Made by a program: the position numbers and the translations under genes. Shown in pieces: positions 4,754 through 25,173 of a stretch of DNA of 64,000 nt (positions are counted from its first letter, which is position 1; each line of letters begins with the position of its first letter). The stretch is taken from assembly GCA_038874075.1 (NCBI GenBank), contig JAVZDD010000002.1:4605-68604 (forward strand), in the 5' to 3' direction. This DNA comes from Candidatus Nanoarchaeia archaeon (GTDB taxonomy: Archaea > Nanobdellota > Nanobdellia > Jingweiarchaeales > Jingweiarchaeaceae). The notes under the pieces were generated by a model that was not told the DNA's origin, did no database searches, and saw nothing but the letters and a program-made list of their open reading frames with translations.

Positions 4754-4773
4754 ATAAATTTATCAATTTGAAG

Positions 4774-6156
4774 ATGATTATTTTAATTATGCAAGCAAAG
4801 CAGATATTCTCTTTGAGCTCGATTGTAATAGTAATTTTTTTAGTTGGTTGCATTGGTCAAACAACACAGATGTGCACAAATCCAGATATTTGCAGTGATG
4901 ATAATCGCTGCTGTTCTGGTTACATATGTTGTGATGGTGCATGTGTTAGAGCTGAGACCTGCGCTTGCACAGGAAACATTATTTTGAGCGAACAATTTTT
5001 GAAGAATTACACAGGTACAAATATCTCATCAGGTACAAATGTACAATTCACCATATGCGGACTTAATAAATACTGTGAAAATGAGACAGTCTACATTAAA
5101 GAATCAAATTGCGATGCTCCAGATTATTTAACTTCATTTAAACCAGTTTATAAAAGCTCTTGTAATAATTTCGGTGGTTCGCCTTCTTTTTTCCTTACAT
5201 ATGGTTCGCACACGATTTGTGCATGTATTGACATAAACAAAGATAATAAGTTTGATGGCGGGGAGAGGTCATGCAGAAGTTTCTTGATTTGTCATTCAAA
5301 TCTTTCAGAGACATGCTACTCGGATGCAATGTGCTGTGAGGGTAGATGTATGAATGGCAAATGTTGCTTAACAGAAAATCAAGTGTGTAGGAATAACGAA
5401 GAATGTTGTACGAACTTTTGTTCAAATGGCACATGTAAGGAAATACCAGTAACAACATGCGCTGGTCAGACAAAATTAGATTTACCATCCATTGTTTCTC
5501 CCCAAAGCCCGATTTCTGCAAAAATTTATGGTCTAAACTCACTCTGTGCTGGGCATAAAGTGTATCTTAAAAAACAAAATTGTACTGGCGAGATAATCAT
5601 AAGTACTACACTAGATAGCAACGGAAGTCGTTCATTCCAATTTTCCGCGCCTAGCATGCTCGGTACCCACACATATGCTGCTTGTGTTGATATTACAGGG
5701 AATGAAACATTTGATAAGCCAGAAGAGTACACAACGAAACAGGTTAGGGTATGTTATGGACTTGGGCAAAGATGTGAGAATGATAATGAATGTTGCTGTA
5801 ATATATGTGATTATGTTTGCGGGGCATGCGATGGCGATGTTAACCTATCTTTGAGTGCATACAATGTAACACCCAACGCAACGATCCTTGCAACGATTTC
5901 TGGTTTAAGCAACAGATGCTTGAACAGGACAATTGAACTTAGACAATCAAGTTGTGTGGGTGAATTAATAAAATCATGCAATGTTGAAATGTCTTTCTGT
6001 GAGGGTGATAGATGCACTTATGGTTGCCAATTCTCATTTAATGCACCAGCACAAAACGGAACGTATAGATACTTTGCCTTTTTAGATCTCGATCTAGACG
6101 GTTTCATATGCATAAGTGAAAAAGAGTACGGGTATGCGATTGTCAATGTTATCTAG
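4774..6156 (+). CDS. Cysteine-rich modular secreted/surface protein
   Basis: About 460 aa; N-terminal hydrophobic anchor ending LVGC, about 50 Cys, three about 80-aa repeats (x-GLN-x-C...GxHTYAAC-DI), Cys-rich linkers, many N-x-S/T sequons. Track start 4768 is TTG; ATG at 4774. Confidence 0.6.
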   Translation: MIILIMQAKQIFSLSSIVIVIFLVGCIGQTTQMCTNPDICSDDNRCCSGYICCDGACVRAETCACTGNIILSEQFLKNYTGTNISSGTNVQFTICGLNKYCENETVYIKESNCDAPDYLTSFKPVYKSSCNNFGGSPSFFLTYGSHTICACIDINKDNKFDGGERSCRSFLICHSNLSETCYSDAMCCEGRCMNGKCCLTENQVCRNNEECCTNFCSNGTCKEIPVTTCAGQTKLDLPSIVSPQSPISAKIYGLNSLCAGHKVYLKKQNCTGEIIISTTLDSNGSRSFQFSAPSMLGTHTYAACVDITGNETFDKPEEYTTKQVRVCYGLGQRCENDNECCCNICDYVCGACDGDVNLSLSAYNVTPNATILATISGLSNRCLNRTIELRQSSCVGELIKSCNVEMSFCEGDRCTYGCQFSFNAPAQNGTYRYFAFLDLDLDGFICISEKEYGYAIVNVI

Positions 6157-7600: not shown

Positions 7601-7610
7601 AATTTTTATA
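7601..7610 (+). promoter_or_regulatory. Candidate TATA box (aatttttata) for a leaderless MBF1-like transcript
   Basis: A/T-rich TATA-like element about 27-30 nt upstream of ATG 7637; inference only. Confidence 0.3.
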
Positions 7611-7636
7611 TGTTTAACATTTATTTAAGTCTTTGT

Positions 7637-8092
7637 ATGGTAATTTGCGAACTTTGCGGTAAAGAAGTGGAAAAGACATTAGATGTCAGCATCGAAGGTT
7701 CTGTACTTAGGCTATGCGAGTCATGCTCGAAGTTTGGTAAGGTCATCAAAGAAAATAAAATTGTACCAAAAAAAGTTGAAAAAGAGGAGGAAGAGAAAGA
7801 AATAACAATTGTTGAAAACTATGCTGAAATTTTCAGAGAACTGAGAGAAAAGCTTGGATTAACGCAAGAAGAATTCGCTCGCAAGCTCAATGTGAAAGAA
7901 AGTGAAATAAAGAAAATTGAAAGTTCAAAGCTCGAACCTGACATCAATCTAGCACTAAAAATTGAAAAAATGTTTGGAGTTAAATTAATCGAGGAAGGAT
8001 TTAATGTTTTATACAATAAAAGAGAGGAGAAGATAGGCAACTTGACAATCGGGGACGTTATTAAACTTAAGAAAAAGAAGAATTTTCGTTAA
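7637..8092 (+). CDS. mbf1: Archaeal multiprotein bridging factor 1-like protein (zinc ribbon + HTH-XRE)
   Basis: N-terminal CELCG...CESC zinc ribbon, C-terminal helix-turn-helix LGLTQEEFARKLNVKESEIKKIE; second in-frame ATG chosen because the first ATG (7610) sits inside the TATA-like element. Confidence 0.65.
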   Translation: MVICELCGKEVEKTLDVSIEGSVLRLCESCSKFGKVIKENKIVPKKVEKEEEEKEITIVENYAEIFRELREKLGLTQEEFARKLNVKESEIKKIESSKLEPDINLALKIEKMFGVKLIEEGFNVLYNKREEKIGNLTIGDVIKLKKKKNFR

Positions 8093-8124: not shown

Positions 8125-8526
8125 ATGAAGTCTCAAGTGGCCATTGAATACATGATATTAATTTCTTTAATTCTACTACTCTTAGTACCTATCTGGATCT
8201 ATCTTATGCTTTCAAGGATACAGCTTCAAGATGATCTTTCAATTTCATACGCCAAAGATGCGGTCAATCGAATAAAAGATGCAGCCGATTTGGTTTACAT
8301 CCAAGGAAGTCCGGCTCGAGTGAAAGTGAATATTTATATTCCAGAAAATGTGCACAGCATAAATTTTACTGATAGGACGATCATCATCAAATTAAGGACA
8401 AGTGCTGGTCTCGTTGACATTCATGCAGAAACATTAGCTAACATTACAGGACAGCTGCCTGTTCAAAGCGGATACTACGAAGTAATTGTTAAATCCGAAG
8501 TGGGTTATGTGAATGTCACGATCTAA
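8125..8526 (+). CDS. Prepilin-like protein (class III signal peptide-like N-terminus)
   Basis: MKS-QVAIEY then about 20 hydrophobic residues; Q at +1 and E at +5 relative to a putative K-S cleavage site; many N-x-S/T sequons. Confidence 0.5.
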   Translation: MKSQVAIEYMILISLILLLLVPIWIYLMLSRIQLQDDLSISYAKDAVNRIKDAADLVYIQGSPARVKVNIYIPENVHSINFTDRTIIIKLRTSAGLVDIHAETLANITGQLPVQSGYYEVIVKSEVGYVNVTI

Positions 8527-8905
8527 GTCTCAAATAATCGCGGAAACGCTTTTTGTATATGCAATCTTATTTGCATTTTCAATGATCATGATAATCTACA
8601 TATTCGATCAAAATACACAAATGTTGGAAGAAAGAAAAAGGGCAGAAGCAAATAGAATTTCTTCAGATATTGTGGATGCAATAAATACAGCTGTGATTGA
8701 GGGTGATGGCTTCTCAATTACCTTCACAACACCACCAGACATATTGGGGACGAACTACACGCTAAACATCGATGATGGGGCATTATTGGTTGAATGGAGC
8801 AATCATACGTTAAGTAAAACAATTCTCACCAAGAATGTGTATGGTACATTAAAAAAAGGCACAAATACTGTGAGAAATGAAAATGGGCAGATTTTTATTG
8901 AATAA
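8513..8905 (+). CDS. Prepilin-like protein (class III signal peptide-like N-terminus)
   Basis: MSRSKS-QIIAETLFVYAILFAF; overlaps upstream gene by 14 nt. Confidence 0.5.
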   Translation: MSRSKSQIIAETLFVYAILFAFSMIMIIYIFDQNTQMLEERKRAEANRISSDIVDAINTAVIEGDGFSITFTTPPDILGTNYTLNIDDGALLVEWSNHTLSKTILTKNVYGTLKKGTNTVRNENGQIFIE

Positions 8906-9410
8906 AAAAGCACAAGTATTATCTGCTGATTTAGTGGTAAGCATTTTCATATTCACAATTATCATCTCTTTGTTTTTTATTTTTTGGAGAAATGTATATA
9001 ACAACCTGACAATGCAGGAAAAGTTTTTAGAATTACAATATTCGGCAATAAGAATCTCAAATATGCTCGTGAAGACAACCGGTTATCCAAGCAATTGGAA
9101 TTCAACCAATGTTGTTCAGATTGGGCTTGCATCAGAGGCAAATGTACTCTCAATTGAAAAGTTAAGAGTTTTCTTGGATATTAATTACGCTGAAATCAAG
9201 AGAATAATGAAAATAAGTGAGGATTTTAGGGTAAGAGTGAAATACAGAAATGGTAGTACGATTTTGGATAATCTTGGCTTGCCATTAGAAAAGGGATTGG
9301 AACCATCTCCAAGCGCCAAGATAATCGTTCCCATAGAAAGACCATGTCTATTAAAATTAGAAAATGTAACTGTAATTTGTATCTTTGAGTTTAAGTTGTG
9401 GTCAACATGA
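8877..9410 (+). CDS. Prepilin-like protein (class III signal peptide-like N-terminus)
   Basis: MKMGRFLLNKKA-QVLSADLVVSIFIFTII; overlaps upstream gene by 29 nt. Confidence 0.45.
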   Translation: MKMGRFLLNKKAQVLSADLVVSIFIFTIIISLFFIFWRNVYNNLTMQEKFLELQYSAIRISNMLVKTTGYPSNWNSTNVVQIGLASEANVLSIEKLRVFLDINYAEIKRIMKISEDFRVRVKYRNGSTILDNLGLPLEKGLEPSPSAKIIVPIERPCLLKLENVTVICIFEFKLWST

Positions 9411-12175
9411 AAAAAGGTTTTGTAATTCCACTTGATATGACAATCGCGATTATCATATTACTATTTACCTCAACCATATTCACATTCTTTCAGTATGGGC
9501 TTGAGACACCGGGAATAATCTATGAGCTTTCATATCAAAGGGCTGAAGATACGCTCACGATCTTGCAAAAAACAAAGATTGCTTATGTAACAGATGATCC
9601 CGTCGTAACACAATACATCAATCAAGGGATGATCACAGAAGAAGACATGAATAAAACGATATTGGACTTGATTGGTACATTTTGGTCCGAGGGAAAGGTT
9701 GATTTGGCCGTCAATTTATCAAAGAGTATTTTTGATTCACTATTACCACCAGAAGTTGGTTACGAAATTGTAATAGGGAACGACACTATTTATAGTCGAC
9801 CAGGTGTATTGGGTAGTATTTTCAGAGTGAGGACAGTTGTCTCTGGTTTCAAAACCGGAGAAGCACCACTAGGTTGCATCGCAAGCGCCTACATAGAAAA
9901 AATTAAAGGAAAACGAACCGCATCTTACTATTACTTTGGTGGTTTTACTGGTCAGGGAAATTTAACCTTTTATATTTATGATATTCCAAGCGATGCAATC
10001 ATAGAAAGCATCTATCTAGAACTCAGCACCGTGGCAAATGCCACTTTATACATAAATGGAAATTTTTGTCAATCATTAAATAAGAAATATCCAAATTACA
10101 CCGTTGAAAATTGGACAATATTTGATCAAAATTGCATCAATAACATCAGCAAGGGAGTGGCAAACCTATTCACCATTAACTTCTCTTCCCCAGTTACGAG
10201 TGCATACATTGGTGGCGGTTACATAAAGATCACGTATGATACTGCACAGATGAATGTTCCTCTGGGCAATGTGATGCAATACAACTTCACAGGAATTTCT
10301 GGTGTTATCAACCTGTATGATTCATTTTATATTCCAGGAAATTTAACATCGATGGAGATGCATTTGGAATTTTTAAGTAACTATTCAACTTTTTTCAATA
10401 TTGGTAACAAAACAATTTTTGAGAATAATGGAAGTAATACTACACAAATCATTGATTTCAATGATTCGTATCTATCACAAATTTTGAATTACAGTGAGAT
10501 AAGCTTGGAAACAATTCCATTGCGCTTCGGTATGAAGGCATTTAACATCACGATTCAACAGAATGCTGATGTCATTTTGATCACAGATTTATCTGGAAGT
10601 ATGGATTGGAGATTAGATAGCGAAAATACAGGAATAGCCAGAAATTGTACTGATCCTTTATTGAATAGTTCAAATACAAAAAGAATAAGCTTAGCAAAAT
10701 GTTTGGACAAGGAATTCGTTGATATCATATTAAATACTTCTGGAAATAGGGTTGGATTGGTTGGATTTTATAGTGACAATTCACCACCATACAAAGGAAG
10801 AACAATCATTCACGATTTATCCGATAATAAGACAAGCTTATACAATGCAATCGACAGCTATTTTATCCAGGGTGGAACATGTATCTGCTGTGGTATAAAC
10901 AGGGCTTATAACATTTTGAGTGCGCAGAGCAATGCATCAAGGAAAAAATTCATCGTTGTAATGTCAGATGGAATACCAACACACCAATGTGGCTCAAGTG
11001 GTACAGATGAGTGTCAAGGGATTAGAGATGGTTCTCCGGCAAATGAGGGTTTGTGGTTAGGTTGGGGGGCCGGATGTTATGGTGGAGGAGACGATTGTAA
11101 TACGACCGATTGCTTGTGTGCGATGCAAAATGCGAATTGGTCTTCATGCAGGTCATACAATAATTTGAATGCGACCGTATATTCAATTGGATTCGGACCT
11201 GTTGCAAGCTGTTGGAGTGCAAATTGGACATTGAGATCAATTGCTGATTGTGGACATGGCAGTTACTATGCAAGCAGCGATGCAGATGAACTCAAACAAA
11301 TTTACAGAAGTATCGCAGAATCGATCTTGAATGCATCTTACACCACACAATTGATAGAGGTAACAAATGTAACAAACACAATATTATATCCATCTTCTTA
11401 CATTAAATTTAATTACACACCCATTGTACCGCAATATGGTTACTCTGAAATATCTATAAAAGGTGATACAAAACCTTTCAGCGGTTGCAATGGAAGTTTT
11501 TTTGTTCCAGGTCAATTACAAATTGATGACGTTCAAGTTACATCTTACTCATTTGATTATTGGACGGATAAAATATTTGTGAATAATAGCATTACAAATG
11601 GTAGTTTGATCAATGTCTTTAATCTTTCAAAGTTTGGTAGTGATTATAAAAAACTTGGTGATCCATATGCGATCAAATTTCCAGCTTACTTCATTGGATC
11701 AAACGAGACTAATTACATTAACATTCTGCTTGCCCTGAGTCCGACAAATCAAAGCACAAATTGTTCAGCTGGTGATAGGGTCATTTACACTGGTAGAATT
11801 AGAACACCAATTATCTACTCAAATGTCCTACCATTTTGCAAAGGAAGCAATGTGAGCGTTTGCTTTGATAAAGATCACGATGGCTATGCAGATGGTTGTT
11901 CATACATTGCAATCGGTAAAAATCTTCCGAATTTCAATGCCACACCAAAAACCGTGGAGGATTTGAATCCAAATGAAAACGCAGTAGATCAAGTTTTCCT
12001 ACAACTTTTAGATGCATTAAACTTTGTTACAATACCAGCGAACACTGGTAGATCAGGAAATTTCACGAATCCGATTGACATAGAACTCGTTTCGGAACTG
12101 AATTTTGATACTGTTGATACAGCAAACGTACCATCTCTTTGGCAACCCGTATCAATTGAGGTGAGAATTTCATGA
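9407..12175 (+). CDS. Large prepilin-like surface protein with von Willebrand factor A domain
   Basis: MKKG-FVIPLD N-terminus plus hydrophobic helix; MIDAS motif DLSGSMD, GGT and VVMSDG motifs (vWA), Cys-rich insert, very high N-x-S/T density. Track start 9398 is GTG; ATG 9407 overlaps upstream stop (ATGA). Confidence 0.65.
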   Translation: MKKGFVIPLDMTIAIIILLFTSTIFTFFQYGLETPGIIYELSYQRAEDTLTILQKTKIAYVTDDPVVTQYINQGMITEEDMNKTILDLIGTFWSEGKVDLAVNLSKSIFDSLLPPEVGYEIVIGNDTIYSRPGVLGSIFRVRTVVSGFKTGEAPLGCIASAYIEKIKGKRTASYYYFGGFTGQGNLTFYIYDIPSDAIIESIYLELSTVANATLYINGNFCQSLNKKYPNYTVENWTIFDQNCINNISKGVANLFTINFSSPVTSAYIGGGYIKITYDTAQMNVPLGNVMQYNFTGISGVINLYDSFYIPGNLTSMEMHLEFLSNYSTFFNIGNKTIFENNGSNTTQIIDFNDSYLSQILNYSEISLETIPLRFGMKAFNITIQQNADVILITDLSGSMDWRLDSENTGIARNCTDPLLNSSNTKRISLAKCLDKEFVDIILNTSGNRVGLVGFYSDNSPPYKGRTIIHDLSDNKTSLYNAIDSYFIQGGTCICCGINRAYNILSAQSNASRKKFIVVMSDGIPTHQCGSSGTDECQGIRDGSPANEGLWLGWGAGCYGGGDDCNTTDCLCAMQNANWSSCRSYNNLNATVYSIGFGPVASCWSANWTLRSIADCGHGSYYASSDADELKQIYRSIAESILNASYTTQLIEVTNVTNTILYPSSYIKFNYTPIVPQYGYSEISIKGDTKPFSGCNGSFFVPGQLQIDDVQVTSYSFDYWTDKIFVNNSITNGSLINVFNLSKFGSDYKKLGDPYAIKFPAYFIGSNETNYINILLALSPTNQSTNCSAGDRVIYTGRIRTPIIYSNVLPFCKGSNVSVCFDKDHDGYADGCSYIAIGKNLPNFNATPKTVEDLNPNENAVDQVFLQLLDALNFVTIPANTGRSGNFTNPIDIELVSELNFDTVDTANVPSLWQPVSIEVRIS

Positions 12176-13407
12176 AAAGAGGCATAAGTTTCAGCATCAT
12201 CACATTCTTGTTTCTGATACCAATACTCACGTTCATAATCACATACTCAGAATCAATGCAATCAATCAGGAGGGAAAGCATAAAAAAGATTCTATCTGAT
12301 CAAAATATCTTCTTTTCTAAAACTTTGCTTAATGACCTAGAGAAAATGATATGGATAACGGGGAAACGAGCGATAATTTCAGCAATACAAAGAGTGATTA
12401 AGTATGGTACACCACTGAACGATTCCATTTCCGTTATAAAAGAGCTGATGCAAAACGGTACGATTTTTGGTGTAAATGAAACCCTAATGCAAAACAACAC
12501 AATCGGTTACTGGATAAACTTAATCCAATTGGAACAAAATGTATCTGCTTTCAATTTTTCAATCGCTTATTCAAATTTAGAGGTTGATTGGGAATCATTT
12601 AATTGCATTTTTAATGTTTCATTCTCAATTAATGTTTCTGACATTTCAAATACAACCAGGTCCACGAGGATTGGAAATATCTCAATTCTTGTTTCAATCG
12701 AAAAGATGGAAGATCCGATTTATCCACTATACACGAATGGATTGTTTAGAAAAAGTATAAAAATTTGTAATTCAACACTTCCCGAGGTTCGTAGTTTGGC
12801 TTTTGGTACAATCGCGAGTAAAAATGTCACAGGTATATCAGTCATTGGCCTCTCATCAAATTTAACTTACATTCAATCAATTCAAAACAAATCAGATAAA
12901 ATACTCGTCACAGATAACCTGACGATCATAGGTTCTGCCTTAATAAATGCATTTAAAGGAGTCGTTGCGGATCATAGCGATTTACCAGCAGGTATTACAG
13001 TACCATATATCATAAACACAACAAATGCAACAACATCCATACCAGACGCACGTTTAATATATTTGGACGAAATCACGAAGAAAGTTTGGGACATTGAAAA
13101 ATTTGAAGATACAATAAATACTGGTTGTTACCATATTTCATTGAATGGTTCAAACATTTTTGGTAGGTTAGAGGGAAAATTGAATTCTACGGGGAATAAA
13201 TCAGGCATTGAAAGTTTCGTTGATGTTAGAAAATTAATTTCAATGGATATACCAGTGAAAGAAAACCAAACACTTATTGATTATCTCTATTTTAGTAACA
13301 ACTCTCATCCAGGATGTAAAGTAAGGGGCATCAATGAAACGTGGTTTAGAATTGATCCCTGGAATGCTGAAAGATACGGAGTAGGAGAGATTTTAGATTG
13401 TAGTTAG
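12172..13407 (+). CDS. Membrane-anchored extracellular protein, last gene of the prepilin-like operon
   Basis: MKRGISFSIITFLFLIPILTFII N-terminus; SD GAGGTGAG upstream; start overlaps upstream stop; many sequons. Confidence 0.5.
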   Translation: MKRGISFSIITFLFLIPILTFIITYSESMQSIRRESIKKILSDQNIFFSKTLLNDLEKMIWITGKRAIISAIQRVIKYGTPLNDSISVIKELMQNGTIFGVNETLMQNNTIGYWINLIQLEQNVSAFNFSIAYSNLEVDWESFNCIFNVSFSINVSDISNTTRSTRIGNISILVSIEKMEDPIYPLYTNGLFRKSIKICNSTLPEVRSLAFGTIASKNVTGISVIGLSSNLTYIQSIQNKSDKILVTDNLTIIGSALINAFKGVVADHSDLPAGITVPYIINTTNATTSIPDARLIYLDEITKKVWDIEKFEDTINTGCYHISLNGSNIFGRLEGKLNSTGNKSGIESFVDVRKLISMDIPVKENQTLIDYLYFSNNSHPGCKVRGINETWFRIDPWNAERYGVGEILDCS

Positions 13408-14462
13408 CTTGGACATCTTGGACATGAGATACAATTGTATGAGTTATTAATAAAAACATTTCCGGTGAGAGATGGATCAGCGTTGATGCAATATACGCCA
13501 ATCACATTTTGTTCAATAATATTATTAGAAATTTGTATATTTGATTCTGTTATGATGCCAATGTGGTTTCTATAAATTCTACTATTACTTATAATTGTGT
13601 TGCTTCTCGGAATAAATAAACCCTGTCCCCACAATTCTGTGGAATTAAAACCACATCCACTCAGTTCTGAGTTATTGATTTGTAATGTTGCACCAGGTCG
13701 AACCTCAAAAAAGAAATTTGCATCTTCAAAATCACCATTTGTAATCTTTGAATTTAAGACATAAAGTGCACCCATATCTCCAACTTGAATGCCGTATTCA
13801 CCATCATAACTCGAATTTATACGCAAGGTCACATTGTGAAGGAATAATGCCGTAGAGAAAGGTAGGAGTGGATAGGTGATTTCACCACCAGTTCGAATCG
13901 TCAAATTTCCATTCAAATTTATAATTGTGTCACCGCAATATGTTGACTTATTAACAATCCATTCGCCAAATGTTGGGAACTCACACGGGGCTAGGTAAAT
14001 GTACCCATCAGATGGTGTGGCTTCTGAAGATGGAACCGTAAATTCAAATACAAATGAACCACCAGAAGGAAGTATAGCAATTAATTTTATCGTGTGGTTT
14101 TTTTCTGCTTCAAGCGGAGGCACAAATGTGATCGTTATTGATTCATTCGGCTTTAAATTGACCTCAATCTCATCTACCAATCTATCATCAACAAAAACCT
14201 TTATTTTTTCTATCTCCTCGGTTCCGGTGTTCTCTATTATCGTTTGATTTCCCTTGACTTCCTTGAAGCTGATTTCTACTTCTTTTTTGGGTTCTTGAGT
14301 ATGAGTAGATCCAGTCTTTGTTATTTGATAGTAAATCATCGCAATTAAAACAATTGCCACCAAGAGAATAGGAATCAATTTTTTTAGGAGATCACTTTTT
14401 TTATGAACCTCTTTTTCCTTCTTCACGACTGTTTGCTTGTCCTTAACTTCTCTCTTTTTCAT
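13404..14462 (-). CDS. Membrane-anchored protein with right-handed parallel beta-helix repeats
   Basis: K-rich N-terminus plus TM (LIPILLVAIVLIAMIYY); C-terminal repeats SNSRIYRNHIGIITESNIQISNNIIEQNVIGVY typical of PbH1 beta-helix repeats; ends CISCPRCPS. Confidence 0.55.
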   Translation of the reverse strand: MKKREVKDKQTVVKKEKEVHKKSDLLKKLIPILLVAIVLIAMIYYQITKTGSTHTQEPKKEVEISFKEVKGNQTIIENTGTEEIEKIKVFVDDRLVDEIEVNLKPNESITITFVPPLEAEKNHTIKLIAILPSGGSFVFEFTVPSSEATPSDGYIYLAPCEFPTFGEWIVNKSTYCGDTIINLNGNLTIRTGGEITYPLLPFSTALFLHNVTLRINSSYDGEYGIQVGDMGALYVLNSKITNGDFEDANFFFEVRPGATLQINNSELSGCGFNSTELWGQGLFIPRSNTIISNSRIYRNHIGIITESNIQISNNIIEQNVIGVYCINADPSLTGNVFINNSYNCISCPRCPS

Positions 14463-14495
14463 TGAATAATTAAAAAAGAATCCAAACTTAAAAAA

Positions 14496-14627
14496 CTATC
14501 GTGTTTTTCGCTCGAGATTGGGATATTCGGCAAATTCTAAAATTTCATTACATTTTTTACAGAGATGCATATCTTCCCTTTCTTCAACGTTGAGCTTGCT
14601 ACCGCACAATTCACATTTCGCTTCCAT
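14496..14627 (-). CDS. Small zinc-ribbon protein (43 aa), not in ORF track
   Basis: MEAKCELCGSKLNVEEREDMHLCKKCNEILEFAEYPNLERKTR with CxxC...CxxC; A/T-rich TATA-like sequence about 25-30 nt upstream suggests leaderless expression. Confidence 0.4.
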   Translation of the reverse strand: MEAKCELCGSKLNVEEREDMHLCKKCNEILEFAEYPNLERKTR

Positions 14628-14726
14628 TATATGATATTGTATTACTAAGTATTATTTAAATTTTATGAATTACCCCACAGTGAAAATACAACAAAAAATA
14701 AAAGATATTATACAATATTTAATTCA

Positions 14727-15845
14727 ATGGAAAAATATTTTGTTGCATTCAAGTATGGATTACCCAATATATTTGCGCATTTATTGGCAATGCAACAAAT
14801 AAAGGAATTCTATTCTCTTTTGCCGAATTATGAAGGTAAAGATATAGAGCTGGACATTATTAAAAGACATGAGACAAGGCCACCAGCTTGGTTGAGGAAC
14901 CAGGCGTTTGTGATATGGAGCGGCAATCAAGGTTATTTCAGTATCTTTAGTAAAAAAGCGATGAAGACAGCCATCGCATACACGATTGCTTTCTATGCTG
15001 CAGATCTAAAGGATGAATTGTGTGATAAGTATTTAATCCCAATACTTTGTTCAAAAAAATTTCAGAGTTACAATGAAAATAAAATTTTGAATTTGATTTT
15101 GAACACGAACATTCAAAAATTGAATAATTCAGTTAAGAAAGAAGCGCTCGTGCTTGAAAATGCGTCTGATAACTTATTACAACTTACTTCTTTAAAATTT
15201 ATTGAGCTTGGGAGGGAAGCGTATTTACTGTATAAAAAAGGGATGATGCGCGCATTTAAAGGACAAGCAATGGATGTTTGGATTTCTACTAAACTAAAAA
15301 CAAATAAGTTAAATGAAATAAAGAGGAAGTTTCATACCAAGGATTATTTAAAAAAAATAGTAAGCGTCGCCGAAGAGAAACTTGGTTGTATTGGGGAATA
15401 CGCAGCCAAAATCACATATCGATTGAGCAACGGTAGTGACAAAAAAATTGAAAATGCACTCTGTACTTGGTACAAGAATGCAACCACTCTTTTACAAATC
15501 ACATATGATGATATGAGGGAGATATTGGATAACTTAAGAGAACGAGAAACGAATCCGTTTATACTTGCGATGATATGTAATGATTACAAGCATCTGAGTA
15601 AGGAGAACTTAAAAATTTTTCTTGAACACAATCCAGAGCTAATTAATAATATGATTTCACCATTAATTGAAGGCATAAAAGAAAGTCTAAAAAAGTTGGA
15701 AGATTTTAATTTCCACGACCACCTCCTAGCCACAAATATGATCATGAAAATTGTAGACAAGGAGATTGATAGTTTCGAGAAGAAAATTGGTGTAAAAGTA
15801 ATAAGACCAAAATTAACCGATGTAAGAAGCAATATCTCGTTCTAA
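14727..15845 (+). CDS. Hypothetical protein
   Basis: 372 aa ORF, predicted helical, no recognisable motif. Confidence 0.45.
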   Translation: MEKYFVAFKYGLPNIFAHLLAMQQIKEFYSLLPNYEGKDIELDIIKRHETRPPAWLRNQAFVIWSGNQGYFSIFSKKAMKTAIAYTIAFYAADLKDELCDKYLIPILCSKKFQSYNENKILNLILNTNIQKLNNSVKKEALVLENASDNLLQLTSLKFIELGREAYLLYKKGMMRAFKGQAMDVWISTKLKTNKLNEIKRKFHTKDYLKKIVSVAEEKLGCIGEYAAKITYRLSNGSDKKIENALCTWYKNATTLLQITYDDMREILDNLRERETNPFILAMICNDYKHLSKENLKIFLEHNPELINNMISPLIEGIKESLKKLEDFNFHDHLLATNMIMKIVDKEIDSFEKKIGVKVIRPKLTDVRSNISF

Positions 15846-25050: not shown

Positions 25051-25173
25051 GCGGGGGTAGCGAAGCTAGGTCCAACGCGCAGGACTTAAGTTTAATTACT
25101 TAAGTGATGAGGTCACAATGATATGAAATCCTGTGGCTTAGTGCCCGCGTGGGTTCAAATCCCACCCCCCGCA
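25051..25173 (+). tRNA. tRNA-Leu (anticodon TAA) with about 37-nt intron
   Basis: Acceptor GCGGGGG/CCCCCGC, discriminator A, long variable arm, T-arm GTGGG-TTCAAAT-CCCAC; anticodon stem CAGGA...TCCTG interrupted by about 37 nt (25091-25127 if at canonical 37/38 site). Confidence 0.65.

Follow-up and report, generated by a model that had tools for sequence, protein, structure and literature searches.

The gene at 13404..14462 on the minus strand of the 64-kb window analysed here (contig JAVZDD010000002.1 of assembly GCA_038874075.1, 64,000 nucleotides in all) encodes a membrane-anchored protein of 352 residues, hereafter the target, in which an immunoglobulin (Ig)-like domain is followed by a short right-handed parallel beta-helix. 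We read this protein, with moderate confidence, as a type II (N-in, C-out) anchored, probably N-glycosylated surface binding protein of a Candidatus Parvarchaeota (DPANN) archaeon. Its lysine-rich cytoplasmic tail and single uncleaved transmembrane (TM) helix would hold it in the membrane, the Ig-like (CARDB/FN3-like) domain would serve as a stalk, and a compact seven-rung beta-helix of the NosD/CASH type would form the exposed head, apparently closed at its N-terminal end by a likely C160-C176 disulfide and at its C-terminal end by a CxxCxxC cluster. This head, presumably non-catalytic, would recognise glycans or surface polymers, and these may belong to the cell's own envelope or to a host cell. 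Profile matches show it to be a homolog of the 'head' module found at the N-terminus of many large multidomain surface proteins of archaea and bacteria. A first-pass annotation of the same DNA had described the anchored beta-helix protein and had suggested its cooperation with an adjacent prepilin-like operon; that interpretation is partly supported by the present analysis, its structural reading being right and its operon link unsupported.

The gene and its orthologs

The coding sequence is complete, with an ATG start, 352 codons and a TAA stop. In line with the first-pass annotation, the list of open reading frames (ORFs) places its end four bases inside the last gene (which ends at 13407) of a five-gene operon lying on the opposite strand, and the shared bases, TTAG, contain both stop codons. 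The gene is real. A partial protein from a Candidatus Parvarchaeota metagenome-assembled genome (MAG) is 100% identical to the target (P0001), the ortholog P0002 is 57% identical, and three other metagenomic contigs hold full-length orthologs at about 57% identity, the copy at locus L003 being 348 residues long. An identical copy of the neighbouring 411-residue protein has likewise been deposited from Candidatus Parvarchaeota MAGs, and genes for aMBF1 and for an archaeal-type TrpRS are found near the target, which identifies the organism as a DPANN archaeon. Contigs were also scanned, twice for genomes and once for metagenomes, and no relative of either the target or the last operon gene was confirmed.

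Membrane anchor and Ig-like stalk

The N-terminal tail (residues 1-28; 14379..14462, minus strand) holds 12 lysine or arginine against 5 aspartate or glutamate residues, and that of the ortholog is just as basic; by the positive-inside rule, this tail is predicted to be cytoplasmic. It is followed by a single predicted TM helix, a putative uncleaved signal anchor (residues 29-46; 14325..14378, minus strand), with a hydropathy peak at residues 25-47. This is the sole strongly hydrophobic segment of the target (residues ~29-46), and AlphaFold2 (AF2) models a helix at residues 3-50. The lysine-rich N-terminus and single anchor reported in the first-pass annotation are thus borne out by composition, hydropathy and structural model. 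All ten N-x-S/T sequons of the target lie C-terminal of the hydrophobic segment. No class III (prepilin) cleavage motif, defined as [KR]-[GAS] followed by a hydrophobic helix, was found within the first 45 residues, and the Pfam scan of the target gave no Class_IIIsignal match; the ortholog lacks the motif too.

Between anchor and helix lies an Ig-like (CARDB/FN3-like) beta-sandwich that the first-pass annotation had not noted (residues 62-145; 14028..14279, minus strand), which AF2 models as seven strands with a predicted local distance difference test (pLDDT) score of ~80-92. Foldseek matched this region to FN3 domains and to FlaF/FlaG. Its Pfam matches are sub-threshold, both for CARDB (PF07705; 19.0 bits against a cutoff of 22.7, residues 76-128) and for DUF2808. 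A bona fide CARDB domain is present beside the beta-helix module in one relative, P0185.

The beta-helix head

Residues 160-345 (13428..13985, minus strand) adopt, in the AF2 model, the right-handed three-sheet parallel beta-helix fold of the NosD/CASH type, with about seven rungs including an N-terminal cap. A model built on a 3-sequence alignment had a pLDDT of 64 and was replaced by a run on an alignment of 37 modules. Three regular PbH1-type repeats of ~22 residues (281-301, 302-321 and 322-345) follow the pattern G-[IV]...N..I..N, and the irregular rungs upstream of them constitute the cap region. The C-terminal beta-helix expected at first reading, of a kind seen in adhesins and polysaccharide-active proteins, was indeed recovered both in this model and by sequence: the profile of the 37 modules matched NosD (7o0y) at E 4.3e-11 and AlgG at E 1e-5 in the PDB, where a sequence search with the 3-sequence alignment had given no match.

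Searches with hidden Markov models (HMMs) detected beta-helix families in relatives, and the target itself stayed below the Pfam thresholds. In relatives whose matches cover residues 163-345 at E 1e-14 to 1e-24, PF13229 and PF05048 score above cutoff in that very region, and P0002 barely passes the Pfam NosD cutoff (23.9 against 23.6 bits). The Pfam/NCBIfam scan of the target returned no beta-helix family, Beta_helix and NosD remaining unmatched even at E<=10. This missing match is a limit of detection sensitivity and does not contradict the fold.

Two sets of cysteines mark the ends of the helix. C160 and C176 flank the N-terminal cap, and their equivalents co-occur in 13 of 15 other modules, which suggests that they form a disulfide. 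The C-terminal motif NCISCPRCPS (residues 344-352, with C344, C347 and C350; 13407..13433, minus strand) reads NCSSCPRCPI in the orthologs, and NC.SCPRCP is nearly absent from other modules; a further cysteine, C325, sits one rung before it. This cluster may cap the end of the helix, through a disulfide or a metal. The second rung carries a family-specific insertion loop, YPLLPFSTAL (residues 197-206; 13845..13874, minus strand), and these ten residues occur, among the 37 aligned modules, solely in the target and its ortholog, with low AF2 confidence.

Distribution of the head module

A profile of two orthologs matched 918 proteins at E<=1e-3 among 1.84 billion representative proteins, and delineated a module of ~180 residues. 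Orthologs aside, almost all listed matches are confined to positions ~163-345 of the query. Their N-terminal boundary is sharp: 149 of 238 domain matches begin at profile positions 160-180. Large surface proteins with several domains make up most of the 918. The module begins at most 80 residues from the N-terminus in 100 of 183 cases, straight after a signal peptide or anchor, and it is repeated in giant proteins, with up to 11 stretches in a single protein of 2303 residues. Its partners in relatives are CARDB, Laminin_G_3, Kelch and DUF2341 domains, and the names given at source are 'right-handed parallel beta-helix repeat-containing protein' and 'Periplasmic copper-binding protein (NosD)'. 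One relative comes from Hodarchaeota. A word-indexed search with the module alignment yielded 16 proteins and added little.

The small architecture of ~350 residues is rare, being limited to the target and one ortholog group (57% identity), yet it is made of common parts. The sole distant protein with the whole N-terminal layout of TM helix, Ig-like domain and beta-helix is P0084/P0176 (1482 residues), which is 27% identical to the target over ~330 residues and runs on for ~1100 residues more. Its N-terminus (loci L002/L010) reads MKKG/ASTAIVMILVML, a class III, prepilin-like signal motif; as far as such a motif can tell, some beta-helix head proteins of the P0084/P0176 group may be pilin-fused.

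The target is a compact, 352-residue example of Ig plus beta-helix surface proteins, which usually comprise thousands of residues, and could for that reason be a handy system in which to express a single 'head' module and find its ligand. Its fold, its combination of domains and its type of organism have all been described already, and the target is a small, rare addition to a well-known kind of protein.

Binding or catalysis

DPANN archaea rely on physical contact with a host, and surface proteins are obvious candidates for establishing it. The target resembles the Nanobdella aerobiophila proteins MJ1_0451, MJ1_0701 and MJ1_0776, DPANN surface proteins in which Ig-like folds likewise occur with a parallel beta-helix and numerous N-glycosylation sequons (10.1101/2023.10.27.564410). 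These are much larger, with 908-1320 residues and up to 8 Ig-like folds against 352 residues and one such fold in the target; compared by architecture, they appear to belong with the target as regards both type of protein and type of organism. An action on the host's glycosylated wall has been proposed for pectin-lyase-like proteins from other DPANN archaea (10.1101/2023.10.27.564410). The main alternative to a binding protein is, in this line, a glycan-active enzyme anchored at the surface (a lyase, hydrolase or epimerase) that would cleave or remodel a polysaccharide or the glycosylated envelope of a host, and we consider it unlikely on several grounds.

A regular-expression search of the target for DPHD (AlgG), for NTD, G[DQ]D, G.HG and RIK (GH28) and for W[IV]DH and RxPxxR (PL1) found none of these signatures. 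The positions conserved over the 37 aligned modules are glycines, asparagines and hydrophobic residues, that is, purely structural ones, with no conserved acidic or basic position and no candidate catalytic residue. The helix has just ~7 rungs, and its sole long loop is the low-confidence insertion described above. In addition, up to 11 modules occur in one giant protein, as is usual for structural or adhesive arrays and not for catalytic domains. Binding is preferred over catalysis because neither candidate catalytic residues nor AlgG, GH28 or PL1 motifs were found, and because the relatives contain such adhesin-like arrays.

Comparison with individual enzymes points the same way. The periplasmic alginate C5-epimerase AlgG (4nk8) is 12% identical to the target, which has less than half its length and lacks its DPHD motif; organism and context differ as well. 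The top Foldseek matches of the target were the pectate lyases PelI/Pel3 (PL3; 3b8y, 4u49), at E 1e-4 to 1e-3, and in these entries an FN3-like domain precedes a short beta-helix, in the same order as in the target. PelI/Pel3 are secreted bacterial enzymes with 7-12% identity to the target, and they superpose poorly on it (TM-score ~0.2). With such low identity and poor global superposition, the likeness is an architectural analogy rather than a sign of common family. Autotransporter passengers (pertactin, Vag8, Hap, EtpA) belong to bacterial outer-membrane systems with C-terminal beta-barrels, and show no detectable sequence homology to the target.

Upstream zinc-ribbon ORF and putative promoter region

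Immediately upstream of the target, a co-directional ORF of 43 residues encodes a C4 zinc ribbon (14496..14627, minus strand) and ends 33 nt before the target's ATG. A CxxC...CxxC protein of 43/44 residues is kept at the same place in L003 (10355..10489, minus strand), and the L003 copy attains the Pfam DUF4428 cutoff. Neither this ORF nor two conserved DNA blocks around it figured in the first-pass annotation. The first block (14631..14673, minus strand) hardly varies between the window and L003, in contrast to the adjoining coding DNA, which has diverged, and it is unique in the window. It contains TTTAAATA (14653-14660), 26 nt before the zinc-ribbon ATG, which may be a TATA box from the geometry of archaeal promoters. 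The second block, the 25-nt AAAAACACGATAGTTTTTTAAGTTT (14484..14508, minus strand), is identical in the window and L003 and also unique in the window; it covers the stop codon of the zinc-ribbon ORF together with a T-rich, TATA-like stretch that precedes the target's ATG by ~26 nt, and could be an internal promoter or another regulatory site. Both blocks would then represent the pair's own promoter region, from which the target would be transcribed with or just after the zinc-ribbon gene, independently of the pilin-like operon.

The zinc-ribbon motif CELCG...LC..C weakly resembles the N-terminal zinc ribbon of aMBF1 (7610..8092; BLASTP E 0.018). Divergent from the zinc-ribbon and target pair, a protein of 372 residues (14727..15845, plus strand) has no Pfam or NCBIfam match and is kept in L003 as a protein of 357 residues (10605..11678, plus strand).

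Relation to the pilin-like operon

The adjacent five-gene operon (8125..13407, plus strand), preceded by aMBF1, is genuinely a cluster of type IV pilin-like genes. A class III-type motif is matched at the N-terminus of four of the five proteins and almost matched in the fifth (KKGFVIPLD); one product is a VWA-domain protein of 925 residues. A tblastn search of the window for T2SSE and T2SSF (pilus ATPase and platform) found neither, and genes for both adjoin distant relatives of the operon. At two of the loci outside the window (L010, 21184..22945; L011, 18277..20038), the T2SSE (PilB-like) ATPase gene is split by an intein with a LAGLIDADG domain, and it adjoins a 1950-residue beta-helix plus Laminin_G_3 protein and a TnpB/Cas12f-like gene.

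The cooperation suggested by the first-pass annotation would make the target a partner of this cluster, either as a FlaF/FlaG-like stator or anchor or as an adhesin working with the VWA-domain pilin, a role that we regard as improbable. It would fit the convergent adjacency, which is retained in two lineages, and the extracellular location shared by the target and the operon products. This recurrence tells little, however, because the convergent beta-helix gene was found at L001, L003 and L004, which represent one closely related lineage (operon's last gene 69% identical), and L003 is collinear with the window over the whole 15-kb neighbourhood, from aMBF1 to HerA and a deacetylase, as in general synteny. 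Even the 4-bp overlap is not conserved, relatives showing gaps of 39 and 49 nt. At four distant loci (L005, L006, L007 and L008/L009), a homolog of the operon's last gene was present at 31-34% identity with unrelated genes in the spot after it, and the module HMM found nothing in six-frame translations of the fetched flanks. The distant relative of the same architecture does not lie beside such an operon either: P0176 adjoins ribosomal protein genes, ~8 kb from a T2SSE gene, with no pilin cluster next to it. Synteny is thus not conserved beyond general collinearity, and the proposed cooperation has nothing in its favour among these loci except adjacency and a shared extracellular location.

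The genes that follow the operon's last gene elsewhere were also considered as counterparts of the target (L005, 283 residues; L008, 278 residues; L006, 218/234 residues; ~280 residues overall), and were rejected for want of any BLAST similarity; the L008 and L006 proteins are related to each other and distinct from the target. The 283-residue protein of L005 (9278..10129, minus strand) is TM-anchored and contains a low-complexity (GE)n run; its gene, too, is convergent with the last operon gene and shares a 4-bp overlap with it, just as in the window.

Structural likeness gives the pilus-partner role some further appeal. Like FlaF/FlaG and archaeal type IV pilins, the target has a membrane helix at its N-terminus and then an Ig-like beta-sandwich, and Foldseek pairs this part with the archaeal type IV pilin 8fk7 (E 5e-4) and with the FlaF/FlaG structures 6pbk, 5tuh and 4p94, at E 5e-4 to 3e-2 for the whole set and 5e-3 to 3e-2 for FlaF/FlaG alone. 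The TM-scores are low (~0.4), however, and a helix plus beta-sandwich is a generic geometry. The target is set apart from these proteins by its additional beta-helix domain and by the lack of both sequence similarity to them and a class III signal peptide. No Pfam match places the target in FlaF/FlaG, and no archaellum (fla/arl) genes are adjacent in the window or in L003. We also rejected the target as a prepilin, as it has neither the class III motif nor sequence similarity to any of the five operon proteins. Its location on the opposite strand, behind what may be its own conserved promoter region, likewise speaks against a partnership with the operon. The class III-like motif MKKG/ASTAIV at the start of P0084, the distant relative with the full architecture, also speaks for a pilus connection. 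Because of this prepilin-like N-terminus, we considered a pilin-fused ancestry, itself quite improbable, in which the target would have descended from a pilin-fused adhesin whose cleavable signal was swapped for a permanent anchor with a cytoplasmic lysine-rich tail.

A broader scenario, which we hold to be quite improbable, unites the zinc-ribbon micro-protein and the beta-helix head in a Parvarchaeota-specific host-contact device working with the VWA-pilin operon, in which the pilus would reach the host and the anchored helix would bind the glycan coat of the host, or cut it, where the two cells meet.

Finally, a NosD-like accessory or chaperone acting with an ABC transporter in metal-centre assembly is highly improbable despite NosD being the closest solved relative by sequence profile and despite the score of P0002, since no ABC-transporter, NosZ or copper-related genes occur among the neighbours in the window or L003 (the pilin-like operon, the 372/357-residue protein, TrpRS and a HerA-like ATPase), since the profile match spans just generic PbH1 repeats, and since the target, with its N-terminal TM helix, its Ig-like stalk, a helix of only ~185 residues, sub-threshold Pfam scores and no NosFY/NosZ context, departs from the architecture of NosD/CASH proteins (PF05048, PF13229; 7o0y).

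Other features of the window

A cysteine-rich protein of 462 residues (4768..6156, plus strand) contains Cys-rich and Ig-like-looking segments that are internally repeated, as well as a lipobox-like LVGC close to its N-terminus, and is probably another surface protein. An Rfam scan of the window gave six tRNAs and nothing near the target. One of the tRNA matches (25051..25173, plus strand) spans 123 nt, far beyond the standard length of a tRNA, and therefore probably contains an intron.
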